This document shows positions 17,106 to 41,791 of a stretch of 64,000 nucleotides of DNA, piece after piece. This stretch comes from Patescibacteria group bacterium. GTDB lineage: Bacteria; Patescibacteriota; Patescibacteriia; UBA9934; GWF2-40-263. The notes below the pieces were generated by a model. It had not been told where the DNA came from and did not search any database. It worked only from the letters and a program-made list of their open reading frames with translations. The stretch covers positions 219,642 through 283,641 of the forward strand of contig SCUM01000001.1 of the NCBI GenBank assembly GCA_004297215.1, given 5' to 3'. The stretch's first letter is position 1, and every line of letters starts with the position of its first letter. The translations under genes were made by a program, and so were the position numbers.

Positions 17106-17222
17106 GCGAAAACTTGAAACGTGAAAACTTGAAATCTTGAAAGGAAACGTGAAAACTTTTGAAAAGGCGAAACGGATAAACCGCTTCGTCTTTTTTCATC
17201 GTTTCAAAGTTTCAAGTTTTTC
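17106..17222. terminator. AT-rich intergenic palindromic repeat structure (GAAAACTTGAAA x3 direct + inverted copy) between convergent era and pilD; probable bidirectional terminator
   Basis: Direct and inverted repeats seen in sequence. Confidence 0.5.
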
Positions 17223-18012
17223 ACCCAAAAAACCCCATGTACCACGTGAGGATCGGTCGTCCGAACAGCAGCATCACGAGCGTTGCCAGGGTAAGGAACG
17301 TGCCGAACGGGACCTGCGTCTGCCAGGCCGCCTTCTCGCGCTGGATGAGGAAGAGCCCCACGACGGCACCCAGGGCATAGGCGATGAACAGGGCGCCCAG
17401 CGCGTCCTTCCAGCCGAGCATGAATCCCATGAGCACGCCCAGGCGGATGTCCCCGCCGCCGATCCAGCGGCCTTTGGAGAACAGGTATTGGGCCAGGAAG
17501 AATCCGCCCAGGATCAGCCCTCCCGACAGGAGATCGTACGGATGGAAGGTGCCAACCCACACGTTGAAGGCGAACGCGATCGCCATGGCCGGGACCGTGA
17601 ACCGATCCAGGATGAGGTAATACTTGAGGTCGTAGACGAACAGGAGCATCAGGGAGGTGACGAACGCCAGGTCGCGCAGGAAGAACGCCACCGACTGCAT
17701 CGGGGAAAGCTCCGGCGGCAAGCCGAATCCGTACATGAACCGGAGGTAAAAGACGAAAAACAGCAGCCCGGTGCCGAATTCCACCAGCGGGTACTGCCAG
17801 GAGATGCGCTCGCCGCAGCTTCGGCACTTGCCGCGCAGCGCGATGAAGCTCAAGACCGGGATCAGGTCCTTTGGGGCGATTTGCGCCTGGCAGGACAGGC
17901 AACGCGAACGCCCGCCAAAAGAACTCCCGGCGTTCGTGCGCAGGATGACCACGTTGAGGAAGCTCCCGACCGAGAGCCCGATGACGAAGGCCAAGAGCGC
18001 GCCCATCATCAT
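17221..18012 (-). CDS. pilD: type IV prepilin peptidase (A24 family)
   Basis: MMMGALLAFVIGLSVGSFLNVVILR, a Cys pair and polytopic TMs. Internal start abuts the upstream stop. Confidence 0.8.
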   Translation of the reverse strand: MMMGALLAFVIGLSVGSFLNVVILRTNAGSSFGGRSRCLSCQAQIAPKDLIPVLSFIALRGKCRSCGERISWQYPLVEFGTGLLFFVFYLRFMYGFGLPPELSPMQSVAFFLRDLAFVTSLMLLFVYDLKYYLILDRFTVPAMAIAFAFNVWVGTFHPYDLLSGGLILGGFFLAQYLFSKGRWIGGGDIRLGVLMGFMLGWKDALGALFIAYALGAVVGLFLIQREKAAWQTQVPFGTFLTLATLVMLLFGRPILTWYMGFFG

Positions 18013-18014
18013 AG

Positions 18015-18506
18015 CTAGAGGCGGCAGGCGCCGGCCGAGAGCCCGTCCGGACTCGCGCAGTTGAGGCCCTTCGCGAGGCCGGCCTCGGGCCAATTCCCTT
18101 CGAGCTCGAATTGGATGCGGTACGTGGAATCTTCCCGGATGGAGAGGTAGCACAACGCATCCGCCTCGCCGGCGCAGGAGGCCAGGCCATCGAGCCCCTT
18201 GACGACCGTGGCCGGGACCCTGCGCAGGAACGTGGCGCCGGCGCAGGAGGCGGCGAACCCCTCTTCGCCCAAACATCCGGTCTCAAGCACGCCCAGCGCG
18301 ATCCCTTCCCCTCCCGGCGGGTAGGCGTTCTTCTGGTTGAAGTAATTCTCCATGGCCGCCTGGACCTGGCGAACGTTAGAAAGACGCACGGCGTCCCGCG
18401 CCTGCGCGCGAGCCGCGTTCACCTCGACCGCGGCGAACGCGCCGATGAGGCCGATCGCCAGCAGGCCGGCCAGGATCTGGATGATCTTGCGCTGTCGTTC
18501 CTCCAT
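18015..18506 (-). CDS. pilin-like protein with non-canonical N-terminus (no G/FxxxE prepilin motif) and C-terminal Cys pairs
   Basis: Hydrophobic N-helix followed by ARDAVRLSNVRQVQAAMENYF...YP, a pilin-like signature. Start at the internal Met. Confidence 0.45.
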   Translation of the reverse strand: MEERQRKIIQILAGLLAIGLIGAFAAVEVNAARAQARDAVRLSNVRQVQAAMENYFNQKNAYPPGGEGIALGVLETGCLGEEGFAASCAGATFLRRVPATVVKGLDGLASCAGEADALCYLSIREDSTYRIQFELEGNWPEAGLAKGLNCASPDGLSAGACRL

Positions 18507-18527: not shown

Positions 18528-18581
18528 GGATGAAGGATGTAGGATTTCTTTGCGTATCCTACATCCTACATCCTTCATCCT
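18528..18581. promoter_or_regulatory. 19-bp perfect inverted repeat GGGATGAAGGATGTAGGAT / ATCCTACATCCTTCATCC(C) with heptamer duplications, between response-regulator stop and pilin start
   Basis: Seen directly. It overlaps the last codons of the response regulator. Confidence 0.45.
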
Positions 18582-18969
18582 ACATTCTAACCCGTTCCTT
18601 TACGAGCCGCTCCACGTGCGCGCGCGTTTCCGTCGGCGTGACATGGCCCTTGAGCAGGTATCCGTCCGTGCCGCAGGCAAGCGTCTCGCGCACATGCTCG
18701 CGGTCCCCGCGCGCCGTGAGCGCGACCACGACGATGCCGGAGCTGGTCGGGTCTTCCTTGAGCGCGCGGACGAGCGCGAACGCCTCCGGCACCGTATCGG
18801 CGTCGAGGAGCATCGCGTCCGGAGCCTTCTTCGCGACGAGCTTGCGCGCCTCCTTCGCGTCCGGCGCGAGGCGCGCGACCCACCGGGCCGCCTCGAACCG
18901 CCGCGCGTAGATGCCGGCGAACGTCGCGTCCGGATCAACGATGAGCAGCTGGCGCTTGCGGGCAGGCAC
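18580..18969 (-). CDS. stand-alone response regulator receiver (CheY-like) protein
   Basis: 129 aa with LLIVDPD, MLLDAD, VVALTARGD and the GTDGYLLKG receiver motifs. Confidence 0.7.
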   Translation of the reverse strand: MPARKRQLLIVDPDATFAGIYARRFEAARWVARLAPDAKEARKLVAKKAPDAMLLDADTVPEAFALVRALKEDPTSSGIVVVALTARGDREHVRETLACGTDGYLLKGHVTPTETRAHVERLVKERVRM

Positions 18970-18970
18970 A

Positions 18971-20083
18971 CTACTCGATGTCGCGCATCGCGAGCCCGAT
19001 CGACACGGCCATGCGCGGTCCGATCTCGTCGAGCACCGGACGCAGGTCCGCCGGGTAGGACACCCGCGCCCACGGGTCGCCGCGATAGACGTTCAGGTTG
19101 AGCGAGGCGGAGAGGAACTCGGGCACGCCCGGGAGATGCGCGCTGCCGCCGGTCACCACCACCTTTTCCACCTTCTTGAACTCCGTGAGCTCCATGCGCG
19201 CGTACAGCTGGAGCGCGTACTGGATCTCGTGGAGGATGGGTCCCATCGCAGCCTCCACCGCGGGCGGGAGCTTGCCTCCGGGCATGGCCGGCTGGTTCCC
19301 CAGGTCGGTCTTGATCTGTTCGGCCTCCGATTCGGGCACCGACATCTGCTCCATGATCTTCTTCGTGACGGACGATCCTCCCACGTTGATGGACCTGGTG
19401 AGGAACGGGATGCCTTTCTCGACCACGGTGATGTTCGTGCGCCCGAACCCGATGTCGAGGATGAGCACCGCGCTCTTGTCCTTGCCGATCAGGCTGCGGA
19501 TGAGGGCGAAGGACTCGGTATCGATCGCCTGGAGCTCGAGCTTGGCCGTGCGGAAGATCTCGATGTACTTCTGCACGAGCGTCTTGGCCGCGCCCGTGAC
19601 GAGCACGCGCACGTAGTCGGACGGCTTGCCAGCCGGAACCGTTTGTTCTTTTCCTGCGGCCTTCGTGCCTGAGGCCTTCCCCGCCTGCAGAGGATCGATG
19701 AACGTCGAATAGGTGATCATCTCCGAGATGGGAAGCGGGGTGAGCTTGGCCACCTGCGCGTCGATGAGCGGTTTCATCTCCTTCTCGTCCTTGCGCCGCG
19801 GCACCGCCACGATCGTCGAAAAGATCGAGGACAGCGGGAGCGCCGCCATGGCCTTGTTCGTCTTCACCCCGGCGCGCTTGCACAGTTCGGCAAGCGTCTC
19901 CCCGGCGCCCTTGACGTCCTCGAACGGCGAAACCACGGCCTCTCCCGGCTTGCGCTCGGAATAGCCGTAGGTCAGCAGCGTGGCGCGGCCCTTCTCGTTG
20001 GAAAGCTCCACCACCTTGACCCCCCCGGCGCCGACGTCCACGCCGAGGAAACTTTGCTTTTTCGGAGCGCCGAACAGGGCCAT
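18971..20083 (-). CDS. pilM: type IV pilus assembly protein PilM (actin-like ATPase)
   Basis: SFLGVDVGAGGVKVVELS N-terminus and the actin fold ~350 aa. Confidence 0.75.
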   Translation of the reverse strand: MALFGAPKKQSFLGVDVGAGGVKVVELSNEKGRATLLTYGYSERKPGEAVVSPFEDVKGAGETLAELCKRAGVKTNKAMAALPLSSIFSTIVAVPRRKDEKEMKPLIDAQVAKLTPLPISEMITYSTFIDPLQAGKASGTKAAGKEQTVPAGKPSDYVRVLVTGAAKTLVQKYIEIFRTAKLELQAIDTESFALIRSLIGKDKSAVLILDIGFGRTNITVVEKGIPFLTRSINVGGSSVTKKIMEQMSVPESEAEQIKTDLGNQPAMPGGKLPPAVEAAMGPILHEIQYALQLYARMELTEFKKVEKVVVTGGSAHLPGVPEFLSASLNLNVYRGDPWARVSYPADLRPVLDEIGPRMAVSIGLAMRDIE

Positions 20084-20107
20084 AACCGGCTCAGTATACC
20101 ACAACGG

Positions 20108-29339: not shown

Positions 29340-29499
29340 CAGGAAGCGATGTGTGTCACTTGTGCTCCCCGAATTCGGATGTCTTTTCTGCTCTACGCTC
29401 CTGTCGAAGGACGTGGTGGGAGAGGCGGGAATCGAGGCCGCATGCAAGGGACGCGTAGCTCGTGAAGCTCGCGGTTCAGCGGGCGTATTCCCCCACCGT

Positions 29500-31296
29500 A
29501 TGCCATCTCCATCCACCATCGACGTGACCGGCACGGTCGAAGAGTACCTCGGACGCGAGGACTGGCGCGTGAACGCGAACGCCAACCAGGGCTACTCCCT
29601 GGGCGGCATGATCCTGAACATGGCCGGAAAGGTGACGGCGAAGTACTGGCTGCACAACGTCTATCCGGAGGCGATCCGGGACGCCCACATCGACGGGGAC
29701 TTCCATATCCATGACCTTGACATGTTTTCCGGCTACTGCGCCGGATGGAGCCTTCGCCAACTCCTCGAGGAAGGGTTCAACGGGGTGGCGAACAAGGTGG
29801 AATCCGCCCCGCCCAAGCATTTCGACACCGCCCTCGGGCAGATGGTGAACTTTCTCGGCACCTTGCAGAACGAATGGGCCGGCGCCCAGGCGTTCTCCTC
29901 GTTCGATACCTACCTCGCCCCCTACGTCAAGGCCGACGGCCTCACCTACGACCAGGTGCGGCAAGGGGTCCAGACCTTCGTGTTCAACCTCAACGTCCCG
30001 TCGCGCTGGGGGATGCAGACCCCGTTCACGAACATCACCCTGGACTGGACCTGCCCGGAAGACATGCGCGAGAAGCAGCCCATGATCGGGGGAGTCGTGC
30101 AGCCCTTCACGTATGCCGATTGCCAGCCGGAGATGGACATCATCAACCGCGCGTACATCGACGTGATGAGCGCCGGTGACAATAAGGGGCGCATCTTCAC
30201 CTTCCCCATCCCCACCTACAACGTCACGAAGGATTTCGACTGGGACCATCCCAACGCCCAAGGGCTGTTCGAGATGACGGCCAAGTACGGCATCCCCTAT
30301 TTCCAAAACTTCCTCAACTCCTCCCTCAACCCGAGCGACGTGCGCAGCATGTGCTGCCGCCTCCAGCTGGACCTGCGGGCGCTCAAGGCGCGCGGGGGCG
30401 GCCTGTTCGGCTCGGCGGAAATGACCGGGAGCGTGGGCGTGGTCACGATCAACCTGCCGCGCATCGGCTACCTCTCGCGCACGAAAGAGGAGTTCTTCAC
30501 GCGCCTGGGGACGCTCATGGACCTCGCGCAGACCTCGCTCGAGCTCAAGCGCAAGGTGGTGCAGGAAAACATGGATCGCGGCCTGCTCCCGTACACCAAG
30601 CGCTACCTGTACTCGCTGCGCAACCATTTCTCCACCATCGGGCTCAACGGGATGAACGAGGCGTGCCTCAACTTCCGCGGATGCGACATCGCCTCGCAAG
30701 ACGGCAAGGCGTTCGCGGAGGAGGTGCTGGTCTTCATGCGCGACCGGCTCGTGGAATACCAGGAGCATACCGGCCACCTGTACAACCTCGAGGCCACGCC
30801 GGCCGAAGGGACGACCTATCGGTTCGCGCGCAAGGACCGCAAGCGGTTCCCGGACATCGTCCAGGCCGGCACGCCGGACGCCCCGTACTACACCAACTCC
30901 TCCCACCTCCCCGTCGGGTACTCGGACAACCCGTTCGACGCGCTCCGGCACCAGGACGACCTGCAGACGAAATACACCGGCGGCACCGTGCTCCATCTCT
31001 TCCTCGGGGAGCGGGTGGAGGACTGGAAGGCGTGCCGCGCGTTCGTCCGCAAGGCCCTGGAAAACTTCCGCCTCCCCTACATCACCGTCACGCCGACGTT
31101 CAGCATCTGCCCGACGCACGGATACCTGCGCGGCGAGCTCCCGACCTGCCCGACCTGCGCGGCGGAATGCGAGGTGTGGTCGCGGATCGTGGGGTATTTC
31201 CGGCCGGTCAGCCAGTGGAACAAGGGAAAGAAGTCGGAGTTCGCCGAACGGGTCGAGTACCGCACGGAAGCTTCCCTTGAACCGGTGTGCGCCTAG
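29500..31296 (+). CDS. nrdD: anaerobic ribonucleoside-triphosphate reductase (class III)
   Basis: C-terminal CPTCAAEC zinc ribbon and the glycyl-radical motif SRIVGYFRP. Confidence 0.88.
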   Translation: MPSPSTIDVTGTVEEYLGREDWRVNANANQGYSLGGMILNMAGKVTAKYWLHNVYPEAIRDAHIDGDFHIHDLDMFSGYCAGWSLRQLLEEGFNGVANKVESAPPKHFDTALGQMVNFLGTLQNEWAGAQAFSSFDTYLAPYVKADGLTYDQVRQGVQTFVFNLNVPSRWGMQTPFTNITLDWTCPEDMREKQPMIGGVVQPFTYADCQPEMDIINRAYIDVMSAGDNKGRIFTFPIPTYNVTKDFDWDHPNAQGLFEMTAKYGIPYFQNFLNSSLNPSDVRSMCCRLQLDLRALKARGGGLFGSAEMTGSVGVVTINLPRIGYLSRTKEEFFTRLGTLMDLAQTSLELKRKVVQENMDRGLLPYTKRYLYSLRNHFSTIGLNGMNEACLNFRGCDIASQDGKAFAEEVLVFMRDRLVEYQEHTGHLYNLEATPAEGTTYRFARKDRKRFPDIVQAGTPDAPYYTNSSHLPVGYSDNPFDALRHQDDLQTKYTGGTVLHLFLGERVEDWKACRAFVRKALENFRLPYITVTPTFSICPTHGYLRGELPTCPTCAAECEVWSRIVGYFRPVSQWNKGKKSEFAERVEYRTEASLEPVCA

Positions 31297-31982
31297 GGGG
31301 ATTCATCCCCGTAAGCCTGCTGGATTATCCGGGCAAGGTGGCCGCGGTCGTGTTCACGCAAGGGTGCCCGTTCCGCTGCGTCTATTGCCACAATCCCGAA
31401 CTGATCCCGTCCGACCGGCCCGGAGCGATCGACGAGGAAGAGGTCATCTCGCGGCTCGCCGTCGACCGCGCCCTGCTCGACGGGGTGTGCGTCACCGGCG
31501 GCGAACCGACGTCCCAGCCGGACCTCCCCGCGTTCCTCGCCCGCATCAAGGCGCTCGGCCTCGCGGTAAAGCTCGACACCAACGGGATGCACCCGCGCAT
31601 GGTGGCGTCCTGCCTTGAGGCCGGCCTCGTGGATTGCCTCGCCATGGACCTCAAGCACCGGTGGGAGCGGTATGCGGACGTGATCGGCGAGCAGGCCGCG
31701 GCGGCCGTCTCGCGATGCCGCGAGACGTTCGCCCTCATCCAGCGCTCCGGCATCGACCATGAGTTCCGCACGACGACGTATCCCCGACTCCATACGGCCG
31801 AGGACCTGCACGAGATCGCCTCCCACCTGAGGCCGGGGGAGCGGTATTTCATACAGCCGATCCGTTACGGCAAGACGTTCGTGCCGGATCTTGAGCGGGT
31901 GCCCATGGACTACGCCGAAACGGTGGCATCCCTTCAGCGGGCCTATCCTCTCCTGGAGATCGCCGTGCGCGGCCAGGCCTGA
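31287..31982 (+). CDS. nrdG: anaerobic RNR activating protein (radical SAM)
   Basis: CPFRCVYCHN CxxxCxxC motif. GTG start overlapping the nrdD stop. Confidence 0.85.
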   Translation: MRLGGFIPVSLLDYPGKVAAVVFTQGCPFRCVYCHNPELIPSDRPGAIDEEEVISRLAVDRALLDGVCVTGGEPTSQPDLPAFLARIKALGLAVKLDTNGMHPRMVASCLEAGLVDCLAMDLKHRWERYADVIGEQAAAAVSRCRETFALIQRSGIDHEFRTTTYPRLHTAEDLHEIASHLRPGERYFIQPIRYGKTFVPDLERVPMDYAETVASLQRAYPLLEIAVRGQA

Positions 31983-32292: not shown

Positions 32293-32365
32293 GCCTGCCT
32301 GCCGGTAGGCAGGTCGCAGAGACTCCTCATGATGACCCTCCCCTCTGCGGGAAGGGTCTTTTTTC
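32293..32365 (+). terminator. tandem hairpins (CCTGCCT-GCCGGT-AGGCAGG; GACCCTCC-loop-GGAAGGGTC + T6)
   Basis: Seen directly. Confidence 0.5.
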
Positions 32366-33986
32366 ATGCCGCGCTGCCGCCGAACTCCTCGAGAAGGAGG
32401 TCCACGGCCTCGTCCGGATCCGTCGCTCGCGCATACGTGCCGTGCAGGTGCAGGCGCGCGCCGTACACGCGCTCGAGCACGGGATCGAGGATGAGGCGGT
32501 TGCGGACGGTATTGAGCGTGTCGGCGTGGAGCGAATAGGCGAAGCTGATCTCGATGCGGTCGCCATCCACCCTGGAGATCTCTCCGGTCCGCAGCACGAC
32601 GGGCAGCGACGCGTTTGCGGCCTTCACCAGCTGGAACACGTCCGGCCATTTGGCCTTGACCTGGTCGATGGAGAGGACGGGGACGGTGCCGAGAGCAGTG
32701 GGGGGAGAAGGCGGTAAGGCATCAGGCGTTGAAGGCCTCAGGACGGGCGAATCGGAGACCGAAATAGTCTGAACTTCTACGTTCCCTTCGGCCTTGTCGC
32801 CTACGGCCTTCACGCCTCCCTCTAGCCTCACCGAACCAACCCTCGTCCTCCTAAAATCCGCGCTTCCCTGCGGGCCTTGTCCGCCTGAGGCCTTGTCCGC
32901 CTCGCCGACGCACGACTCCACGATCGCGATCTCTAACGGGAGCGATGGAATGGATTCGCCTTTGGACTGACGCCGCGCCTTTTCAAAACGATCGATGAGC
33001 ACGGCGATCGCACGCGGATTCGTCTGCCCAAGCAATGCGGTAAGTCGTCCTGCGCTGTCATGGTCGAGGCGCGAGGGGAGCGCTTGCGCGTCGCCAAGGC
33101 TCGCGTGGAGCAGGGCGCGCAAGGCGTCCACCACGTCGGCGGCGAAATGCGGGAGATCGACCCCCTGCTCCGCCACCTTCCCGACGAGGGCCACGGCCGA
33201 GGCCGCGTCGCGCTTCACCACGTGTTCGACGAGTTCGGCGGCCGCCAGCGCGTTGGTCGCGGGCAAGACGAGCGAGGCCTCTTCCATCCCCACCTTCTTG
33301 CCGCCGATGGCGAACAGCTGGCCAAGAAGCGACTCGGCATCGCGCAATCCTCCTTCGGCATGACGCGCCACGGCCGCGAGCACGGCTTCCTCGACCTCCA
33401 CCCCTTCCTTCTTGGCGATGCCACGGAGCGTCTCGACGAGTTCCGCGACGGGGATGCGTCGGAAATCGAACCGTTCGCAGCGGCTGATCACCGTCGCGGG
33501 GACCTTGTGGATCTCGGTGGTGGCCAGGATGAACACGGCGTGCGCGGGCGGCTCCTCGAGCGTCTTTAAGAGCGCGTTGAACGAACCGGCGGAGAGCATG
33601 TGCACCTCGTCGATCACGTACACGCGGCGCTTGAGGCGGTTGGGCGCGAAACGCACGGCCTCGATCACCGTCTCGCGGATGTTGTCGACGCCCGTGTGCG
33701 TGGCCGCGTCGATCTCGAGCACGTCCATGGCCGAACCGGCGGCGACGGACTGGCAGGACTCGCACGCGTTACACGGCTCGCCCCCCTTCGACGCGAGACA
33801 ATTCACGGCCTTGGCCAGGATGCGGGCGATGGTGGTCTTCCCCACCCCGCGCGGACCCGTGAACAGATACGCATGCGCGACCTTGCCCGAAACAACCTCG
33901 TTTCTGAGCGTGGTCTTCACGTGGTCCTGGCCGACCACTTCGTCGAAGCAGGTCGGACGGTAGGTTCGATACAAGGCTTCGGACAT
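32364..33986 (-). CDS. dnaX: DNA polymerase III subunit gamma/tau
   Basis: GPRGVGKTT Walker A, a Cys4 Zn module and sensor motifs. Carries 3 in-frame REP-derived segments in the linker. Confidence 0.9.
   Translation of the reverse strand: MSEALYRTYRPTCFDEVVGQDHVKTTLRNEVVSGKVAHAYLFTGPRGVGKTTIARILAKAVNCLASKGGEPCNACESCQSVAAGSAMDVLEIDAATHTGVDNIRETVIEAVRFAPNRLKRRVYVIDEVHMLSAGSFNALLKTLEEPPAHAVFILATTEIHKVPATVISRCERFDFRRIPVAELVETLRGIAKKEGVEVEEAVLAAVARHAEGGLRDAESLLGQLFAIGGKKVGMEEASLVLPATNALAAAELVEHVVKRDAASAVALVGKVAEQGVDLPHFAADVVDALRALLHASLGDAQALPSRLDHDSAGRLTALLGQTNPRAIAVLIDRFEKARRQSKGESIPSLPLEIAIVESCVGEADKASGGQGPQGSADFRRTRVGSVRLEGGVKAVGDKAEGNVEVQTISVSDSPVLRPSTPDALPPSPPTALGTVPVLSIDQVKAKWPDVFQLVKAANASLPVVLRTGEISRVDGDRIEISFAYSLHADTLNTVRNRLILDPVLERVYGARLHLHGTYARATDPDEAVDLLLEEFGGSAA
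32708..32902. repeat. cluster of three REP-like arm copies inside dnaX CDS (32708-32742, 32789-32816, 32868-32902), all in-frame
   Basis: AGGCGTTGAAGGCCTCAGG; GGCCTTGTCGCCTACGGCCTTCACGCC; GGGCCTTGTCCGCCTGAGGCCTTGTCCGCC. Confidence 0.75.
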
Positions 33987-33987
33987 G

Positions 33988-34605
33988 TCAGCTCTTCATC
34001 ACGTTCTCCATCGCCGCCCACACGGATTTCGCCCCTTTCGGGACCAGCACCGCCGCCTCGTCGCCGGGCTCGGCGCGATAGAAGGTGATGCTCGCGGTAA
34101 GTACCTTGTACACCGCCCCGGGCGTGCTCACAAGGTAGGAATCCGTGCTGGGGTCGAACGCCACTTTTCCCGTGACGCGCCGGCGCTCGACCGGGCTGAT
34201 CTGCTTGAAAAGGTGCGCGCCGTCCGCGCGGATGCACAGCTTCAGCACGTCCCCTTCCACCAGGCGGGATTTGGACGCGTAATTGGGCGGCACCCGATAG
34301 CTGCGGCCGTCGTTGCCCACCATGGCGCACCCGTCGAACACCCCTTCCACGACCTGTCCGCCGCCTTGGAGCGCCTCTGCGGCCTGCCGCTTCCCCGCGA
34401 CAAGCGAGGCGATGTGCCGGTGCGCCAGTGCCCCGTCGCCGCCCTCAAGCAGGGCGAGCGCGTTGCCGATCGCCTCGTGCGCCTGATGGAGGATCCGCGC
34501 CGCCAGTTCCGTCCGGCCTTGCGCACAGAGCGCCGGCGCCGACGGATCGCCCGCCTCGTCGGGTTCGGGCTCGAAAGACGTGAAATCAGGCTGGTCGGTT
34601 GGCAT
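33988..34605 (-). CDS. hypothetical protein (205 aa) between dnaX and the TM ATPase
   Basis: ORF tightly packed in the operon (2-nt and 18-nt gaps). Confidence 0.55.
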   Translation of the reverse strand: MPTDQPDFTSFEPEPDEAGDPSAPALCAQGRTELAARILHQAHEAIGNALALLEGGDGALAHRHIASLVAGKRQAAEALQGGGQVVEGVFDGCAMVGNDGRSYRVPPNYASKSRLVEGDVLKLCIRADGAHLFKQISPVERRRVTGKVAFDPSTDSYLVSTPGAVYKVLTASITFYRAEPGDEAAVLVPKGAKSVWAAMENVMKS

Positions 34606-34623
34606 ATTGGTGTTTGTCTGGAT

Positions 34624-37176
34624 TTATTTCCCTCCCACGTCCGACTGGATGGGCGCGGCGGCGGCGATAGACGTGCGTTCCAGGATTTCCGCCTCCACGA
34701 GACGCTTGTCGCGGCCGTACTTGAGGCGTGAGAGCTCCTTGATCGCCTCGGCAAGCTCGACGTTTCCCTTGGGCGCGGGGGTGAAGCCCATCGTGAACGG
34801 CTTCACCGAAGCGTTATCCACGATCATCTTGGTATACCAGGTGAACTTGTCGCTGTTCTGCATGTCGTACCCGGAAAAGTCCGGCGCGTAGATCTTCTCG
34901 AAGATCTCCACGTCCTCGGGACCGATGCGGCCCACCATCATGGTGCCGGCGTTGCCGAACACGGCGTCCTTGATCTTCGTGTCGTTGTCCTTCACCAGCT
35001 GTCCGACATATTGGTGGGCGATGATGAGGTCGAGCCGGTACTTGCGCGCCTCCGACAGGATGGTGGCGATCGAATCCGTGATGAAATTCTGGAACTCGTC
35101 GATGTAGAGGTAGAAATCGCGACGTTCGCTCTCCGGCATGTCGGCGCGGGCGAGCGCGGCCATCTGGAGCTTGGACACGATGATGAGGCCCAAGAGCTCC
35201 GCGTTGACGTCGCCAGTCTTCCCCTTCGACAGGTTCACGAGCAGGATCTTCCCCTCATCCATCACCTCGCGGAAATCGAAGCTCGACTCCTGCTGGCCGA
35301 TGATGTTGCGCATCATCTCGTTCTCCACGAACCGGCCCACCTTGGAAATGAGGTATCCGAGCATCTCGGACTTGTGGAAGTCGCTCGTCTTGTCCACCTC
35401 GTTCACCCAGTAGGACATCACCACCGGGTCCGTGATCTTCGCCCGCCACTTGTTCTGGAAATCCACGTCCGAGAACATGCGCGGAATCTCGATGATGCTC
35501 CCCGCCTGCTCCGGATCGGACATGAGGGTGAGCATCGCGTTGCGCATGTGGTGCTCGAACATGGGCCCGATCATCTCCGGCGGGAACAGCTTGTAGAAGA
35601 TGGCGATCATCTCCTGCACGGCCATGTCCTTCTGGCTCGGATCCTTGCATTCGAGCATGTTGAGCCCCATGGGCCGGTCCGTGTCCGACGGGCAGAAATG
35701 CACGACGTCGTCCACGCGCTCCTTGGGGATGTTCGCGAGGAGATGCTCGATGAGGTCGCCGTGCGGGTCCACCACGGCCACGCCGCGGCCGGCCTTGATG
35801 TCCTGGACGGCGAGCGAGGCGATCAGCTGGGTCTTTCCCGCGCCGGACTTGCCCATGACGTACATGTGGCGCTGGCGGTCGGCCTCCTTGATCCACACCG
35901 GGGTCTTCACCCCGCGGTACACGTTATATCCCATCTCGAGCACGCCGCCGTCCTGCGGACCGGTGGGCACGTTGCTTGGCACGGCGCCGGCGCGCGCCCC
36001 GAGCCACTGGATGTTGGGGGTCTCGGTCCAGGGCGTGGGCATGTGCCAGAGCGTGGCCATCTCCTCGGCGTTGAGCACGATCCTCGCCTTCTCGTCGAAC
36101 GCGCGCGCGATGAACTGGCGCACGATCTTCGTCTTCGACCGGGGCACGCGCTTCTCGAAGGAATTGCCGTACTCGTAGATGTTGAACGGCGAAAAGGCGT
36201 TCAACATGTTGGACAGCGTCGACTGCGCGCTCTGCGCGTCCGGTCCGCTTACCATGAGGCGGATGTTGGCCTCCATCCCGGCCTTGCTCGCCTTTTCCTC
36301 GAGCCCCTTCACCAATTGCTCTTCCTGCGGCGACAGCTTGTGCTCCCTGGGCGGCTCCTGCCCTTCCTTCGCGGACGCGAATCCGGAGAGCTGCGCGACG
36401 CTGCTCCCTTCGCCCTTGCGCTTGCCCTTGATCGCCTCCTCAAGCGTCATCCCCTGCTGCATGTTCTTCGCGATGCGCACGCCGGCCCTGCGCCAGCCGC
36501 CCGGGGCGGAGCGGACGACGAACTGGAACGCGGCCCCGCTCCCCTCGGGGATCTTGGCGATCGCGTTGGTGATGGCGGAGAGCGGATCCTTGTCCTGGCC
36601 GCGGTACGTCTTGATCGGGAACACGCTGTCGCGGCGCAGCGCGAGGTGCGCGCCAAGGATGACGCCGGTAGGCGCGAAGATGTTATAGTCCTCGACTTCT
36701 TCCACGTGCGCGTCGTGATAGCTGGCGGAAAAGGTCTGCTCGACGAACGCCTGCAGGTGGCGGGGAGCGGCCACATAGAACCGGATGAGCTTCTCATGGC
36801 TCACGATCTCGAAGGACATCTCCTCATGGTTCCCTTTGAGCCAGGTGAAGAACCCGTGACGGGGCTTGAGCCCGCCGATCGCGGAGAACATCGTTTCCGC
36901 CGCGGCCACGGCCTCGATGAGCTGCTCCTTGGTGCCCGTGCGCGTGCTCTCCTCCTCGTGCCGGAACTTCGGGAGGCTCACGGACAGCACCACGTGGTCG
37001 AACCCGCCGCGGCGGGCGCGGATCCGACGGCGGATGAGCAGGAGGACGAGCCCGGCGAACGACAGGATGCCGACGCCAACCGCCGCCACCCACCCGTACT
37101 GGGCGATGGCGTCGTTTGCCGCCGACGTGTCGACGAAGGACGGGGGAACGTCCGTTTCGAGGCCGAACTGGAACAT
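34624..37176 (-). CDS. membrane-anchored P-loop ATPase, type IV coupling protein-like (TraD/TraG/VirD4, AAA_10-type)
   Basis: N-terminal TM. Walker A VMGKSGAGKTQ followed by VAVVDPHGDL (T4CP-like), and Walker B LYIDEFQNF. 850 aa. Confidence 0.5.
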   Translation of the reverse strand: MFQFGLETDVPPSFVDTSAANDAIAQYGWVAAVGVGILSFAGLVLLLIRRRIRARRGGFDHVVLSVSLPKFRHEEESTRTGTKEQLIEAVAAAETMFSAIGGLKPRHGFFTWLKGNHEEMSFEIVSHEKLIRFYVAAPRHLQAFVEQTFSASYHDAHVEEVEDYNIFAPTGVILGAHLALRRDSVFPIKTYRGQDKDPLSAITNAIAKIPEGSGAAFQFVVRSAPGGWRRAGVRIAKNMQQGMTLEEAIKGKRKGEGSSVAQLSGFASAKEGQEPPREHKLSPQEEQLVKGLEEKASKAGMEANIRLMVSGPDAQSAQSTLSNMLNAFSPFNIYEYGNSFEKRVPRSKTKIVRQFIARAFDEKARIVLNAEEMATLWHMPTPWTETPNIQWLGARAGAVPSNVPTGPQDGGVLEMGYNVYRGVKTPVWIKEADRQRHMYVMGKSGAGKTQLIASLAVQDIKAGRGVAVVDPHGDLIEHLLANIPKERVDDVVHFCPSDTDRPMGLNMLECKDPSQKDMAVQEMIAIFYKLFPPEMIGPMFEHHMRNAMLTLMSDPEQAGSIIEIPRMFSDVDFQNKWRAKITDPVVMSYWVNEVDKTSDFHKSEMLGYLISKVGRFVENEMMRNIIGQQESSFDFREVMDEGKILLVNLSKGKTGDVNAELLGLIIVSKLQMAALARADMPESERRDFYLYIDEFQNFITDSIATILSEARKYRLDLIIAHQYVGQLVKDNDTKIKDAVFGNAGTMMVGRIGPEDVEIFEKIYAPDFSGYDMQNSDKFTWYTKMIVDNASVKPFTMGFTPAPKGNVELAEAIKELSRLKYGRDKRLVEAEILERTSIAAAAPIQSDVGGK

Positions 37177-37178
37177 GG

Positions 37179-37709
37179 TTAGACGGCGTTGCCGCGCTCA
37201 CGCTTCTCCGCTTCCGCGAGCAAGAGGAGCTTGTCGGTCTTGATCTTGGCTTCCTGCTCCAAGTAGAACCTGTTCGCCCGGTCGGAGAGGAGCTTCAGCC
37301 AGTCGCGGATGGCGTCGAACACCTTCTTCACGTTCACCTTGGTCTGCATGAGCAGCTCCCGCACCGAACGCGCGGTCTCTTCGCCCTGCTTCTTGAAATG
37401 CGCGCGCTCCTTGGGAGAAAGCTGCTTGTAGATTTCTTCAAGCCCTTCGGAAAGGACCGCTTCGACCTCCGCCGTCATCCGGTCCTTGGGGGCCTGGATG
37501 ACCCGTTGCACCATCTGCACGGGGGTCGGTGCCGCGACAGGTTCGGTCGCAGCCTGCTCTGTCGTTGGCTCCTCAAGCTCTTCAAACTCCTCTTTCCCTT
37601 CCGGCGCAGCTTCAACCCGCCTGCCCGCCGTAGCTTCAGCGGAGGCGGGTTCAACTCGAATCTCCCCGCCGACCGGGGCAAGACCTTTCTTTTCGGGCTC
37701 CAAGGCCAT
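37179..37709 (-). CDS. hypothetical protein (176 aa; acidic N-half, helical C-half)
   Basis: C-terminal portion of ORF 37179..38105, from the internal Met that follows the cysS stop and a REP copy. Confidence 0.45.
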   Translation of the reverse strand: MALEPEKKGLAPVGGEIRVEPASAEATAGRRVEAAPEGKEEFEELEEPTTEQAATEPVAAPTPVQMVQRVIQAPKDRMTAEVEAVLSEGLEEIYKQLSPKERAHFKKQGEETARSVRELLMQTKVNVKKVFDAIRDWLKLLSDRANRFYLEQEAKIKTDKLLLLAEAEKRERGNAV

Positions 37710-37731
37710 AGATGGGGCTATTGTAGCACAA

Positions 37732-37767
37732 AAGGCGGACAAGGCCTCAGGCGTTGAAGGCCTTAGG
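37732..37767. repeat. REP-like L-arm copy (AAGGCGGACAAGGCCTCAGGCGTTGAAGGCCTTAGG); contains cysS stop codon
   Basis: Family core in reverse orientation. Confidence 0.75.
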
Positions 37768-39139
37768 AAGTCTTGATGACGGGTCCGTTCGCGCCGTCTT
37801 CGACGGCAAACCCTCGAACGGCGATCTCGTCGCGCAGCCGGTCGGATTCCTTCCAATCCTTTGCCTTCCGCGCCGCTTCGCGGGCCTGCACCAGCATATG
37901 GACGTCGTCCGGGACTTCGATCGCCTTTCCGACGAGATCGACGAGTCCCAACCCGAATACCGAGTCGAACACGGCGAGCGACTTGGCCTTCGCCGCGCTC
38001 GGGAGCGACGCGTCCTCGACCATGTTCCACAGGGCTGCCAGCGCTTCCGGCGTGTTCAGGTCGTCTTCGATCGCCTTCCAGAACGCACGCTCGTGATCGG
38101 CACATCCGACCGTGCCAGGCTCATCCCAACCTCGGACCGTGTCGCGCAGGCGCTTGAGCGCATTCTGCGCCGCCGTGAGCGCTTCCCAGGTGAAATTCAG
38201 CTTCGTCCGGTAATGGGCGCCCAGGCAGAAATAGCGGAAGGCGAGCGGATCGAATCCGCGGGTGACCAATTCCTCGAGCGTGAACAGGTTGCCGAGCGAC
38301 TTGCTCATCTTGCCGCCGTCGACCGTGAGGAACTCGCCGTGCATCCAGACGTTGGCCTCGAGGACGCCGTCGGCCCCTTGCGTCTGCGCGAGCTCGTTCT
38401 CGTGGTGCACCGGCACATGGTCGATGCCGCCGGTGTGGATGTCGAACGGGACGCCGAGAAACTTCTTGGACATCGCGGAGCACTCGATGTGCCAGCCCGG
38501 GAACCCTTTTCCCCAGGGAGATTCCCACTCCATTTCGCGTTTCCCGTCCGTCGGCGAGAACTTCCACAGGGCGAAGTCCGTCGAATTCCGCTTTTCGCCC
38601 ATGTCCACGCGCGCGCCCGCCTTCTTGTCTTCCGCTTTCTGACCGGACAGCCGGCCGTAATCCGGGAGCTTCGACGTTTCGAAATACACGCCGTCGGACG
38701 TGACGTACGCGTACCCGTTCTTCTCCAGTCGACGGATCATGTCGATCTGCTCCGGAATGTTGTCGGTGGCCCGCGGATACGCATCCGCCGGCAGGACGTT
38801 CAACCGCGCCAGGTCCTTCATGAACGCCGCCTCGTAGAACCGGGCGATGTCGTAGGCGGTCTTCCCCTCGCGACGCATCGCGAGCAGCATCTTGTCCTCG
38901 CCCAGGTCGGCGTCATCCGTGAGATGGCCCACGTCGGTGACGTTCATGACGAGCTTCGTCTTCAGGCCGGCCATCGACAGGGCACGTCGCAGCACGTCCA
39001 CGAACACGTATGTGCGCAAATTTCCCACATGCGCGAACCAATACACGGTGGGGCCGCAGGCATAGATGCCGACATTCCCTTCCTGGATGGGCTTGAATTC
39101 CTCGACCTTGCGTGTGAGCGTGTTGTAGAGCCGGATCAT
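37763..39139 (-). CDS. cysS: cysteine--tRNA ligase
   Basis: MIRLYNTLTRK..YACGPTVY, HVGN (HIGH) and KMSKS motifs. Start at the internal Met. Confidence 0.9.
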   Translation of the reverse strand: MIRLYNTLTRKVEEFKPIQEGNVGIYACGPTVYWFAHVGNLRTYVFVDVLRRALSMAGLKTKLVMNVTDVGHLTDDADLGEDKMLLAMRREGKTAYDIARFYEAAFMKDLARLNVLPADAYPRATDNIPEQIDMIRRLEKNGYAYVTSDGVYFETSKLPDYGRLSGQKAEDKKAGARVDMGEKRNSTDFALWKFSPTDGKREMEWESPWGKGFPGWHIECSAMSKKFLGVPFDIHTGGIDHVPVHHENELAQTQGADGVLEANVWMHGEFLTVDGGKMSKSLGNLFTLEELVTRGFDPLAFRYFCLGAHYRTKLNFTWEALTAAQNALKRLRDTVRGWDEPGTVGCADHERAFWKAIEDDLNTPEALAALWNMVEDASLPSAAKAKSLAVFDSVFGLGLVDLVGKAIEVPDDVHMLVQAREAARKAKDWKESDRLRDEIAVRGFAVEDGANGPVIKTS

Positions 39140-39175
39140 AGTCGCACGCAGTATATCGGGAGCGACCCTAAACGC

Positions 39176-39201
39176 AAACCCCGCCTGGACGGCGGGGTTT
39201 T
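39176..39201. terminator. intrinsic terminator AAACCCCGCC-TGGAC-GGCGGGGTTTT (bidirectional)
   Basis: Seen directly. Confidence 0.6.
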
Positions 39202-39206
39202 GCTGC

Positions 39207-40670
39207 TTAGTCCTCGTCTTCGTCCTCGCTGTCATCATCCTCGTCTTCGTCACTCTCGTCGGTATCCTCATCATCATCCTCGTCTTCGTCCTCATCCGCA
39301 TCCTCCTCCTCGGCATCTTCCGGCTCCTGCTCGCGCACAATATCCTCGGCGTGGCGCTTTCCGTGGGCGGTCTCGATGCGCTCCTTCACGATCTCCTTGA
39401 GCGGCCGCTCGCGCTTGAGCGGGTGGAAATCGGCCGACGTGGCGTGGATGAAGGAGGCGGCGACCGTGTGCAGGGTGGCGTTGGCGACCCCTTCCACGCG
39501 GACGATGTCCCCGACCTTGAGGTCGGCCTCCGTGGCTTCCTTGCCATTCTTCTTGATCTTCGTGTCGTCCGTGTACGTCACCTTCCACGTGACGCTCGTG
39601 TCGATCCGGGAAACCCCTTCGTTCTGGGCATGGATGGACCCCTTGAGCTCCTTGCGCAGGGCGAGCTCGACCGTCAATTCGTTCTTGGCCGTGTCGATCG
39701 CCTTGATCTTGCCCAGATGGCGGGCCACGCCGCGCTTGAAGATGGATTCGTCCTTGATGAGCCGAGCCGTGATGGTGCCGTCGTCGTCCACGCGGCCGAC
39801 CACGAACAGCGTGTCGCCGACCGTGAGCTCGTCGAGCGACGCCTCTCCCTTGTACTTTCGTACGAACTTGGTGTGCTCATCCACCTTGACGGTGACCAGC
39901 TCTCCCGGGACGCCCACCAGGTTGTTCACGTCGTCGGCGCGCAGGCGCTTGTCAGCCGCGAGCTCCACCGTGAGCGTCTTCGCGGACTCGTCGATCGCCT
40001 TGAGCGTGCCCGTGAACGGGCGCGTGCGGGCCTTCAGGAAGATGTCGTCCCCGCGGCGAAGCGCCACGATGATGCTCGCCTCGTTCGTGGCCGTCCCTTC
40101 GACCAGGCGGGCGCGGACGCGGTCTCCGACCTTGAAATCGGCAAGGACGGCCGGGTTCTTGGGCGGGACCACGAGATGCGTCTTGCCCGTCACCTTGAGC
40201 ACGGTGTCCTTTTCCTTCCACGTGACCGTCATCGTCGATGCGGCCGTATCGATCGCCTTCACCCAGCCGTTCACCCCTTCGCGGCCGGAAAGGCTCAAGG
40301 AAAGGTCCTTGACCTCGCGCGCCGTCACGACGAGGGTGTTGTCGTTGAGCGTCCCTTCCACCTTGAGGGAATCCCCGGTGATCCAGGTGGACATGGCCGG
40401 TTTCACCTCGGCGCCGACGGGCACCTCCACCGTGTAATCCTTGAACGCGCCGGTCGGGTTCACGCGCACGACGATGGTCGTGGGCAGGTCGGTGGAGGAC
40501 AGCTCGATGAGCTGGCCCTTGAGCTCGATCTTGGTCGTCGTCTCCTCCGTCGCTTCCGCCTCGGCGGAATCCTGGGCGGCCGCGGGCAATACCGGCAGCA
40601 CGACGAGGGCGGCGGCGAGCGCGAGGCACGCGGCGATCCACGATCGCTTGAGGACGATGGTCATCGTCAT
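39207..40670 (-). CDS. secreted repeat protein with poly-acidic (D/E) C-terminal tail
   Basis: Signal peptide. About 4 internal repeats (...KAIDTA..TLTVEL...). The last ~45 aa are almost all D/E. Confidence 0.6.
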   Translation of the reverse strand: MTMTIVLKRSWIAACLALAAALVVLPVLPAAAQDSAEAEATEETTTKIELKGQLIELSSTDLPTTIVVRVNPTGAFKDYTVEVPVGAEVKPAMSTWITGDSLKVEGTLNDNTLVVTAREVKDLSLSLSGREGVNGWVKAIDTAASTMTVTWKEKDTVLKVTGKTHLVVPPKNPAVLADFKVGDRVRARLVEGTATNEASIIVALRRGDDIFLKARTRPFTGTLKAIDESAKTLTVELAADKRLRADDVNNLVGVPGELVTVKVDEHTKFVRKYKGEASLDELTVGDTLFVVGRVDDDGTITARLIKDESIFKRGVARHLGKIKAIDTAKNELTVELALRKELKGSIHAQNEGVSRIDTSVTWKVTYTDDTKIKKNGKEATEADLKVGDIVRVEGVANATLHTVAASFIHATSADFHPLKRERPLKEIVKERIETAHGKRHAEDIVREQEPEDAEEEDADEDEDEDDDEDTDESDEDEDDDSEDEDED

Positions 40671-41311: not shown

Positions 41312-41791
41312 TCACAGCAATCCGCGGAGTTTCTTGATCACGCGATGCGTGGCCATCTTGAGCGACGTCGCGGGCCGGCCGAGCAATTCGGCCATGTCCG
41401 CGTATCCATACCCCTCAAGGTACTTGAGCGTAACAAGGCGTCGTTCCTCGGGTTCCAGCGCCGAAAAGGCCCTGGCCACCAGCCGCTGGTCGTCGGTCCG
41501 CTGCTCCAGGCCGCGACCGTCCTGTCCCACGAGCAGGTCGCAGACGTCATCGAGGTCCACATGCATGCGCCGGTCGCGGTACCAGTTGGCGAGGTGGTTA
41601 TGCGCGATGCGGTAGATCCAGGCCGAGCGGGACACGGCCTCGTCGTAGCGGTCGAACGCCGCGAGCGCCTTCAGGAAGATCTCGCTCGTCAGGTCCTCGG
41701 CGGTCGGCTCGTCCGGGACGCGCAAACGGACGTATCGGTAGATACGATCGATGTTCGCGCAATAGAAGCGGTCAAATGCCCTGCGATCCAT
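41312..41791 (-). CDS. ECF-type RNA polymerase sigma factor
   Basis: Sigma70 region 2 (..YRIAHNHLANWYR) and region 4 (LKYLEGYGYADMAELLG). Confidence 0.8.
   Translation of the reverse strand: MDRRAFDRFYCANIDRIYRYVRLRVPDEPTAEDLTSEIFLKALAAFDRYDEAVSRSAWIYRIAHNHLANWYRDRRMHVDLDDVCDLLVGQDGRGLEQRTDDQRLVARAFSALEPEERRLVTLKYLEGYGYADMAELLGRPATSLKMATHRVIKKLRGLL

Follow-up and report, generated by a model that had tools for sequence, protein, structure and literature searches.

The module described here lies in a 64-kb stretch of patescibacterial DNA (the window) and, as read along the minus strand, runs from cysS through genes for proteins of 176, 850, and 205 aa to dnaX (Table 1). The initial annotation had described a three-gene module tightly packed between these two housekeeping genes, and the open reading frames (ORFs) were found exactly where it had placed them. 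The stop codon of the 176-aa gene and the start of the 850-aa gene are arranged as TAA-cc-ATG, an 18-nt spacer precedes the 205-aa gene, and the dnaX ATG lies 1 nt past the 205-aa stop codon (TGA-c-ATG), such that these three junctions measure 1 to 18 nt. The identity of dnaX was supported by Pfam matches to DNA_pol3_delta2 (8.5e-41) and to the DnaX lid and domain III. The third-position GC content (0.92 in the 850-aa ORF, 0.84 in the 205-aa ORF), together with the number of homologues found at E ≤ 1e-3 (148, 2249, and 343 for the 176-, 850-, and 205-aa proteins, respectively), indicated that the three ORFs are real genes. The GC content of the module matches that of its flanks and the host genome composition. 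The ATPase gene, its two lineage-specific partner genes, and dnaX share one predicted operon.

Table 1. Features of the module and its neighbors (positions in the window)
Feature	Position	Strand	Remarks
cysS	37763-39340		Upstream neighbor of the module
Extended -10 element, promoter-like (TGcTACAAT)	37720..37728	minus	Read from sequence
176-aa accessory protein gene	37179-37709	minus	
850-aa coupling-protein-family ATPase gene	34624-37176	minus	
TM helix, residues 27-48 YGWVAAVGVGILSFAGLVLLLI	37033..37098	minus	Kyte-Doolittle hydropathy
N-terminal cytoplasmic domain, residues 55-420, PF26449/DUF8128	35917..37014	minus	Precomputed Pfam annotation
VirD4/TrwB-type nucleotide-binding domain, residues 421-800	34777..35916	minus	
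Walker A GKSGAGKT, residues 442-449	35830-35853	minus	
DPHGD motif, residues 470-474	35755-35769	minus	
Walker B YLYIDEF, residues 689-695	35092-35112	minus	
205-aa accessory protein gene	33988-34605	minus	
FEPEP motif of the 205-aa protein	34561-34575	minus	Conserved
Two OB/cold-shock-like barrels, residues 84-205 of the 205-aa protein	33991-34356	minus	Predicted structure
dnaX (clamp-loader tau/gamma subunit)	32364-33986	minus	Last gene of the co-directional string

The 850-aa ATPase

The 850-aa protein comprises a transmembrane (TM) helix, the DUF8128 domain, a VirD4/TrwB-type nucleotide-binding domain, and a conserved C-terminal tail, in this order. The N-terminal TM segment noted in the initial annotation proved to be a single helix, the only part of the protein with a Kyte-Doolittle hydropathy above 1.6. 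It is followed by RRRIRARR, and the positive-inside rule predicts a short N terminus outside and a cytoplasmic location for the remainder. The DUF8128 region, which connects helix and ATPase over ca. 370 residues, is predicted to fold like the VirB4 N-terminal domain. Walker A and Walker B (LYIDEF, within YLYIDEF) were both present as first read, and so was VAVVDPHGDL, which, however, does not immediately follow Walker A, as had been claimed, but lies 17 residues downstream. About 240 residues separate Walker A from Walker B, where TrwB has its all-alpha domain; this insertion aligned with TrwB residues 115 to 393, which we take to include that domain, at a similarity far below that of the Walker blocks (hhalign). 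In an alignment of 43 sequences, the invariant residues include G442, G445, K448, D470, P471, G473, D693, E694, R711, K712, and Q722. Since even sequences with as little as 31% identity keep the Walker A, DPxG, Walker B, and R/K/Q motifs unchanged, the protein is predicted to be an active enzyme.

Three Pfam models matched the ATPase above their cutoffs, including TrwB_AAD_bind (PF10412; 9.8e-9, 35 bits versus a cutoff of 20.5), T4SS-DNA_transf (PF02534; 1.8e-7, 30.9 bits versus 20.1), and TraG-D_C (PF12696; 3.4e-5, 24.2 bits versus 22). Matches from Pfam and NCBIfam fell within residues 410 to 757, among them the NCBIfam VirD4-like CD1115 model (residues 431 to 748), while NCBIfam equivalog models such as TraD and TrbC scored far under their cutoffs. 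When the family profile was compared with the PDB, the best solved relatives were TrwB (3.6e-8) and then DotL (3.8e-6), and no VirB4 chain was found at E ≤ 1. Likewise, hhalign gave the ATPase 97.3% against TrwB (E 2e-11; the alignment extends over 264 columns, from Walker A as far as the Q motif) versus 8.5% against VirB4/TrwK, and the Pfam CagE_TrbE_VirB and AAA_10 models gave no match at E ≤ 0.01. The NCBI name of the identical protein is [quoted passage not shown] Judged by these profile matches, the ATPase domain is a member of the VirD4/TrwB coupling-protein family, as the initial annotation had proposed. A top match to a housekeeping FtsK, which that annotation had named as the result that would speak against its proposal, did not occur: neither an FtsK_SpoIIIE motor nor a gamma (KOPS-binding) domain was found with Pfam, hydropathy showed no multi-helix membrane domain, and DUF87/HerA matches were confined to the Walker A region.

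Like TrwB (R388, PDB 1E9R) and Legionella DotL, the 850-aa protein belongs to the P-loop ATPases of the FtsK/HerA superfamily, is anchored in the membrane, and carries (I/V)VDPxGD after Walker A and a long insertion before Walker B, and its Walker B/RK/Q block aligns with that of TrwB. However, its anchor is a single TM helix instead of the two, joined by a short outside loop, of classical coupling proteins; and unlike TrwB and DotL, it has the VirB4-N-terminal-like domain between helix and ATPase, has no relaxase or mating-pair genes nearby, is vertically inherited, and is packed with dnaX. It resembles VirB4 (R388 TrwK, PDB 7O42, 7O41, and 8RTD) in its length (ca. 800 residues) and in joining an N-terminal alpha/beta docking domain to a C-terminal FtsK/HerA-type ATPase, but the sequence relation to VirB4 is limited to the Walker B region, and the signature is of the VirD4 type. 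With FtsK/SpoIIIE and HerA it shares the ATPase superfamily and with FtsK also the membrane tethering and, in some lineages, replication, Xer recombinase, and division genes as neighbors, although it lacks the gamma domain and the four-helix membrane domain of FtsK. On balance, we hold it to be somewhat probable that the module represents a coupling protein of the VirD4/TrwB family that has become domesticated on the chromosome and works with two partners specific to Patescibacteria.

The flanking proteins and the conservation of the module

Both flanking proteins had been described as unrecognizable, and at the sequence level they are: neither matched any Pfam, NCBIfam, PADLOC, or PHROG entry, and for the 176-aa protein the solved structures yielded no match either. 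The first ca. 75 residues of the 176-aa protein are acidic, rich in Pro, Ala, and Glu, and poorly conserved, while the last ca. 95 residues, presumably helical in character, are conserved and contain the motif W..L.IPGVN.FFLEQEAKIKTDK; the window copy has a degenerate version of the beginning of this motif (WLKLLSDRANRFYLEQEAKIKTDK). Residues F105, G109, W137, E151, Q152, K155, K157, and D159 are invariant in the alignment. Its homologues are from Patescibacteria wherever the source is named, with no plasmid homologue found, and its gene lies immediately 5′ of the ATPase gene in ca. 30 loci. The 205-aa protein starts with an acidic, disordered N terminus carrying the FEPEP motif, which in the structural model is followed by a helical hairpin (residues 28 to 79) and two small beta-barrels. 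The barrels are basic (pI ~9) with conserved aromatic residues, and their best fold matches are RNA- and single-stranded DNA (ssDNA)-binding OB domains. From these predicted OB/cold-shock-like barrels, the 205-aa protein may bind single-stranded nucleic acid. Its gene still adjoins the ATPase gene in distant lineages (L046 and L052).

Relatives of the ATPase numbered 5599 at E ≤ 1e-30 among the protein-cluster representatives searched, and at least 600 matches were obtained in species-representative genomes, the best 80 of which, by record title, include Uhr-, Magasanik-, Falkow-, Buchanan-, Komeili-, Staskawicz-, Berkel-, Woese-, Levy-, Curtiss-, Roizman-, and Moranbacteria, among others. The order 176-ATPase-205-dnaX is kept in ca. 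30 loci of related genomes at 43 to 72% identity. Overall, 31 of the 84 loci have dnaX downstream of the ATPase gene, and several of these have it directly after, without an intervening 205-aa gene; the two partner genes were undetected beside the ATPase gene in many classes among the loci compared. In Microgenomatia-type loci, NrdR-NrdJ-PduO precede the ATPase gene, and a convergent Xer-type tyrosine recombinase and DivIC follow it (9 loci). No relaxase, VirB4, or VirB6 gene was seen among the annotated ORFs of the window, nor were relaxase or mating-pair genes seen in the related loci with annotated neighbors. The module is a vertically inherited, fixed chromosomal gene set and not a mobile element.

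The single TM helix and the many classes in which the partner genes were undetected beside the ATPase gene count against the domesticated coupling protein, and so do the dnaX, ribonucleotide reductase, Xer, and DivIC neighbors, which are no less suggestive of replication or division than of secretion.

These neighborhoods bear on the idea of a chromosome-handling motor independent of any type IV secretion system (T4SS), that is, an FtsK/SpoIIIE/TraB-like membrane-anchored DNA pump serving replication, segregation, or dimer resolution at division, with the OB-fold protein helping the motor to hold DNA. The positions of dnaX, the Xer-type recombinase, DivIC, and NrdR-NrdJ-PduO would fit such a pump, as would the replication and partition genes around a homologue in phage SPO1, but the signature of the ATPase is of the VirD4 type, with no FtsK_SpoIIIE or gamma-domain match, and the neighborhood varies between classes, as expected of drifting housekeeping clusters. 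Moreover, ftsK is annotated in Saccharibacterium TM7x, and therefore the niche may already be filled. We regard this motor as rather unlikely.

Proteins of the same architecture as the ATPase occur on plasmids of monoderms and haloarchaea and in Bacillus phages; they align over residues ca. 100 to 840, DUF8128 region included, with 20 to 31% identity, and are plasmid or phage borne, whereas the module here is chromosomal. On Bacillus subtilis plasmid CP120602, a DUF87 protein of this architecture is encoded upstream of TcpD/TcpE-family genes; haloarchaeal plasmids encode the protein as two separate ORFs beside a pilin gene; gp156 of phage G adjoins a gene annotated as VirB-like; and SPO1 gp27.4 (phrog_5156) adjoins a nicking replication initiator. 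We know of no T4SS in SPO1-like phages, for which the local gene neighborhood was inspected here, and the homologues in these phages thus count against the domesticated coupling protein. No homologues of the 176- and 205-aa proteins were found for these mobile-element relatives. The association with TcpD/TcpE, pilin, VirB-like, and nickase genes suggests an ancestry of the ATPase in transfer systems.

Such relatives could also be taken to mean that the module is a decayed integrated conjugative element, in line with the conjugation remnant offered in the initial annotation, or a defense system with a HerA/MADS-type ATPase, to which a PADLOC mad8 match (4.6e-12, residues 425 to 727) and weak HerA matches, all in the ATPase part only, would correspond. 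However, the catalytic motifs are all intact and conserved family-wide, the composition is that of the host, the gene order and the phylum-wide spread described above are kept, and the annotated ORFs of the window lack an integrase, relaxase, VirB4/VirB6, methylase, or nuclease partner beside the module; neither flanking protein is known to PADLOC. Synteny and conservation contradict this reading, which we consider extremely improbable, and the remnant proposal was not supported. With PADLOC, a full MADS/HerA-based defense gene set was not found beside the ATPase gene.

Possible roles of the module

Several published observations bear on how a domesticated coupling protein could operate in this phylum. 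In the portion of a 2025 survey cited here (Quinonero-Coronel et al.; PMC12102498), VirD4-type coupling-protein homologues are recorded in 2918 of 3035 (96%) Patescibacteria genomes, only 148 of 5713 of their genes lie near virB4, and relaxases are rare. These homologues are very probably the same gene set as the ATPase here, both being of the VirD4 type, mostly far from virB4, and without an assigned function; relative to that portion, the N-terminal fold, the partner genes, and the dnaX/ribonucleotide reductase neighborhood are additions of the present analysis. In S. epibionticum, the essential T4SS cluster has no recognizable coupling protein (PMC10633639), and a coupling-protein homologue is reported in the same portion of the survey not to be essential for epibiotic growth, even though the T4SS is, which argues against an obligatory T4SS partnership (PMC12102498). 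The dispensability and the distance from virB4 also count in favor of the chromosome-handling motor.

For the domesticated coupling protein, we propose the following mechanism. The 850-aa protein would be tethered to the cytoplasmic membrane via its one helix, and its VirD4-type domain, as judged from the family, would form an ATP-driven ring. By analogy to the VirB4 N-terminal domain in the inner-membrane complex of the R388 T4SS, the VirB4-like domain may dock this ring onto membrane partners. The 205-aa protein could serve as an adaptor, the basic barrels of which would hold single-stranded nucleic acid, the likely substrate, while its acidic FEPEP tail or its helical hairpin may contact the motor; the 176-aa protein, from the same transcript, would be a second stoichiometric partner. 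The channel would most likely be Patescibacteria's own relaxase-less T4SS, which is without a coupling protein in its own cluster. As to the direction of transport, we incline to the view that nucleic acid would be taken up or handled to supply nucleotides.

Alternatively, the ATPase could couple effector proteins to export through the Patescibacteria T4SS, with the small proteins as adaptors or chaperones, analogous to DotM/DotN/IcmSW serving Legionella DotL. DotL is the second-best solved relative, and effector-coupling complexes typically include small acidic adaptors. The phylum has almost no relaxases, according to the cited portion of the survey (PMC12102498), and effector delivery by the Patescibacteria T4SS has been speculated upon (PMC11665869; PMC10633639). 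Yet, the best folds for the 205-aa protein are nucleic acid-binding OB domains rather than known secretion chaperones, the module has no effector-like genes, and its context is nucleotide and DNA metabolism, which makes export of effectors distinctly improbable.

An extension of the coupling-protein reading is that the three proteins serve, as receptor and motor on the cytoplasmic side, an import of host nucleic acid that extends across the phylum, a proposal we put forward as speculative and quite unlikely. After entry via the relaxase-less T4SS or a different channel in the envelope, single-stranded RNA or ssDNA would be captured by the OB-fold partner and pulled inward by the VirD4-type ring, docked by the VirB4-like domain; the recurrent adjacency to ribonucleotide reductase and dnaX genes would tie the imported nucleotides to DNA synthesis. 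If this were true, the mechanism so far missing would be at hand both for the nucleotide acquisition without ComEC that has been inferred in S. epibionticum (PMC11665869) and for the feeding on host RNA described in 2026 (bioRxiv 10.64898/2026.06.21.733656).

Patescibacteria cannot make nucleotides, and a near-universal coupling-type ATPase stripped of every conjugation link, with a predicted single-strand-binding partner and this recurrent adjacency, is a concrete candidate in the question of how nucleotides are acquired. The competence machinery is dispensable in the single species tested. If the ATPase were merely the coupling protein of the T4SS, with its gene at another chromosomal site, the outcome would be a useful but ordinary annotation. 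The combination of a VirD4-type ATPase with a VirB4-like N-terminal domain also bears on the divergence of the two T4SS ATPase families.

A promoter-like element upstream of the module

The extended -10 element TGcTACAAT, which was not called by a generic sigma-70 scan, ends 10 nt 5′ of the ATG of the 176-aa gene. As a putative promoter, it would start a near-leaderless transcript of the module downstream of cysS. In L001/L002, L003, L005, L006, L008, L014, L017, L023, and L036, the homologous gene has a similar TGnTAnnnT a short distance upstream, as read by eye, because the start codons of these loci are imprecisely mapped.

Layout and predicted transcription of the module

As the initial annotation had described, genes for proteins of 176, 850 and 205 aa lie between cysS and dnaX, and we confirmed this arrangement. 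Reading the sequence gives TAA-cc-ATG at the 176/850 junction, a spacer of 18 nt between 850 and 205, and TGA-c-ATG at the 205/dnaX junction. The 53-nt gap after cysS contains a TGcTACAAT sequence that resembles an extended -10 element and ends 10 nt short of the ATG start codon of the 176-aa gene. In about nine related loci, comparable elements were read by eye a short way 5′ of the 176-aa homologue. The scan for terminators and promoters performed at chance level and placed no terminator between any of the four genes, and Rfam and tRNA scans gave no match inside or adjoining the module. We infer that 176-850-205-dnaX form a single transcription unit. The cysS ORF as called (525 aa, TTG start) exceeds its homologues (458-466 aa) by about 60 residues, and the real start is probably near MIRLYNTL; the DUF5666 ORF carries a long acidic Asp/Glu C-terminal tail overlapping this cysS 5′ extension.

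Features of the window and of loci carrying ATPase relatives (L handles)
Feature	Position or loci	Strand	Remark
ECF-type sigma factor gene	41312-41791	-	first of the listed gene string
208-aa ORF	between ECF-type sigma factor and DUF5666 genes	-	
DUF5666 protein ORF	39207-40670	-	upstream of cysS
cysS	37763-39340	-	
176-aa gene	37179-37709	-	locus tag EPO34_01315
850-aa gene	34624-37176	-	
205-aa gene	33988-34605	-	locus tag EPO34_01305
dnaX	32364-33986	-	after 205-aa gene
PilM	18971-20104		type IV pilus
Response-regulator receiver gene	18580-18969		between PilD and PilM
Prepilin peptidase PilD	17221-18276		~14 kb from module
Low-GC-island ORF, 221 aa	2104-2769	-	
Low-GC-island ORF, 236 aa	1332-2042	-	hydrophobic stretches suggest membrane protein
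Xer-like tyrosine recombinase, then DivIC/FtsB	L059, L062-L064, L067, L069, L080, L081, L083 (e.g. L080 7554-8914)	convergent to ATPase	Woese-/Levybacteria-type
~130-150-aa upstream ORF	L037, L039-L041, L043-L045, L047, L050, L051, L054, L057, L060, L066		

Domain architecture of the 850-aa protein

Identical proteins on record carry the NCBI name 'type IV secretory system conjugative DNA transfer family protein'. Against Pfam, residues 426-757 matched TrwB_AAD_bind (9.8e-9), T4SS-DNA_transf (1.8e-7) and TraG-D_C (3.4e-5), all over the cut-offs, and a DUF87 match was limited to the Walker A region. NCBIfam matched TraD and TrbC in part and the VirD4-like CD1115 model across the full domain, all far under the equivalog cut-offs. 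A profile built from 43 family members, which share 31-52% identity with the 850-aa protein, retrieved TrwB (3.6e-8) and DotL (3.8e-6) from the PDB and did not find VirB4 there. When the plasmid R388 sequences of TrwB and TrwK were used as hhalign references, TrwB aligned at 97.3% probability (E 2e-11) over 264 columns that run from Walker A to the Q motif, and TrwK/VirB4 at 8.5%. The coupling-protein assignment of the initial annotation was thus borne out by Pfam, the PDB profile and the alignment to TrwB. Its motifs were also correctly read, except that VAVVDPHGDL lies 17 residues past Walker A rather than directly after it. Throughout the family, Walker A, DPxG, Walker B and the R/K/Q residues after it are invariant. 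A reading as housekeeping FtsK was considered and rejected.

At the N terminus, a single hydrophobic helix (residues 27-48) is followed by an arginine run, and thus the remainder of the protein should be cytoplasmic. Residues 55-420 are assigned to PF26449/DUF8128 by precomputed annotation, and the domain was identified by this route and then via its fold, a Pfam set lacking the PF26449/DUF8128 model giving no match even at E <= 10. The AlphaFold2 model of this region, computed with 68 homologues, was confident (pLDDT 87.4, pTM 0.85), and its top ten Foldseek matches, with E from 7e-6 to 3.4e-4 and query TM-scores of 0.39-0.45, were without exception TrwK chains. Together with the VirD4-type ATPase, this TrwK-like fold indicated that a VirB4-like docking domain is joined to a VirD4-type motor in one protein. 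A full-text literature search for 'DUF8128' retrieved no paper.

Distribution, partner proteins and gene neighbourhood

An exhaustive search found 5599 relatives of the ATPase among protein-cluster representatives at E <= 1e-30, the best 150 of which mostly gave near-full-length alignments. Species-representative genomes yielded at least 600 matches; judged by record titles, some of which seem mislabelled, the best 80 represent a wide range of Patescibacteria lineages. Family loci are often titled as 'uncultured Gammaproteobacteria', 'Bdellovibrionales', 'Methylomirabilota' or 'Limisphaerales' MAGs (e.g. L010, L015, L020, L050, L056), and since several of these (e.g. L010, L015, L020) show Patescibacteria-type synteny, their titles are probably placeholders or wrong taxonomy. 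Giant members of 1.3-2.0 kb-residue (P0377, P0380, P0384 and others) were considered as 'Rosetta-stone' fusions and rejected as such, their extensions being Pro/Ala-rich, low-complexity and devoid of Pfam domains. They consist of the usual core plus a disordered Pro/Ala-rich tail, which ends in a short conserved …GE[VI]Y[VI]D..GN… motif in the two sequences read (P0377 and P0384).

Synteny was counted by profile searches over 84 loci. A 176-aa homologue lies immediately 5′ of the ATPase in about 30 of them, with a 205-aa homologue downstream in 28 and dnaX downstream in 31. These arrangements are essentially absent outside the 38 loci with the most similar ATPases (identity of about 41-43% or more; Uhr-, Magasanik-, Falkow-, Buchanan- and Komeilibacteria types). 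The dnaX gene comes straight after the ATPase in several of those 38. In two distant loci, a 205-aa homologue is flanked by tandem ATPase paralogues, with HTH proteins.

Neither partner had a relative in Pfam, NCBIfam, PADLOC, PHROGs, PDB sequences (searched with profiles) or plasmids. The 205-aa protein modelled well (pLDDT 84.8), with a disordered acidic N terminus that contains a conserved FEPEP, a hairpin of helices and a pair of small beta-barrels. Conserved Tyr, Trp, Lys and Arg lie in the barrels, which are basic (pI about 9), and from this model the protein is a plausible single-stranded nucleic acid binder. The N-terminal half of the 176-aa protein is acidic and poorly conserved, and the conserved C-terminal half contains the motif FFLEQEAKIKTDK in most family members. 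This motif was sought in the distant loci and was absent. In 14 of these, the upstream position is filled by an unrelated acidic-plus-helical ORF of ~130-150 aa, with an acidic N terminus and a conserved KGV.HAV.VA..M.DPYILD..HD motif; this ORF may be analogous to the 176-aa family or very remotely homologous to it.

Ribonucleotide reductase genes repeatedly adjoin the module (window 29353-31982; L003 2074-5247; L080 1000-4451). In the window, NrdD and NrdG lie immediately beyond dnaX and converge on it; class II NrdJ is 5′ of the ATPase on the same strand in 11 of the 84 loci. Those 11 represent two distant lineages, and the L080 copy is accompanied by NrdR and a cobalamin adenosyltransferase. 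A complete Woesebacteria genome has the order NrdR-NrdJ-PduO-(131-aa ORF)-ATPase, after which come an Xer-type recombinase, in convergent orientation, and DivIC. Xer and DivIC occur downstream of the ATPase in nine of the 84 loci, a pairing reminiscent of FtsK-XerCD. This gene neighbourhood supports the main alternative reading, a T4SS-independent motor tied to replication or segregation, which we consider rather unlikely overall.

Mobile relatives, origin and candidate function

The spread of the N-terminal fold was assessed by tblastn, and proteins aligning with residues ~100-840 of the ATPase were found on 709 plasmid records, with hosts including Bacillus, Priestia, Streptomyces, Embleya and haloarchaea. 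On haloarchaeal plasmids, the DUF8128-like part is an ORF of its own adjoining the ATPase ORF, with a pilin gene in the same locus; on a B. subtilis plasmid, TcpD/TcpE-family genes lie downstream of the homologue. Among phages, phrog_5156 matched the 850-aa protein over its whole length (4.9e-72), the gp156 homologue of phage G adjoins a gene annotated as VirB-like, and gp27.4 of phage SPO1 (L088 2797-8307) is a full-architecture homologue. The latter lies between gp27.9 (annotated as a partition protein) and gp27.3 (annotated as a nicking replication initiator), a region that looks like a plasmid-like unit within a lytic phage. These plasmid, haloarchaeal and phage relatives indicated that the architecture is old and derives from monoderm/archaeal mobile elements. 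Patescibacteria have fixed it in the chromosome and added new partners.

The proposal that the module is a conjugation remnant was rejected: GC content is even over the module and its flanks, and ORF annotation of the window gives housekeeping genes (including uvrABC, recJ, lepA, alaS, murJ, mraZ/mraW and a copper ATPase), with no relaxase or VirB4/VirB6 among them and no integrase seen. A defence-system reading was likewise considered and rejected.

The best explanation, to which we give somewhat better than even chances, is that the module would encode a domesticated translocase complex of the coupling type, whose substrate is likely nucleic acid and whose most likely partner channel is the T4SS of the Patescibacteria phylum. 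The coupling-protein gene family is already catalogued: Quinonero-Coronel et al. 2025 (PMC12102498) report that 2918 of 3035 Patescibacteria genomes carry VirD4-type homologues, that of these 5713 genes a mere 148 are near virB4, and that relaxases are seldom present. They also describe the S. epibionticum copy as not essential and state that exaptation 'cannot be ruled out'. An essential T4SS cluster without recognisable coupling or relaxase proteins has been described in S. epibionticum (Wang et al. 2023, PMC10633639). Reviews (including PMC11665869) emphasise that the dispensability of comEC leaves nucleotide acquisition unexplained, and host-RNA uptake by a mechanism not known has been reported (2026 preprint, bioRxiv 10.64898/2026.06.21.733656).

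Elsewhere in the window, pilD and pilM, of the type IV pilus, lie at 17-20 kb, with an unassigned 187-aa ORF also between them and RNase H and recJ after. A low-GC island at 1000-2800 (0.47-0.49 versus about 0.64 elsewhere), which may be foreign DNA, directly adjoins a ribosomal protein gene (2811-3215).
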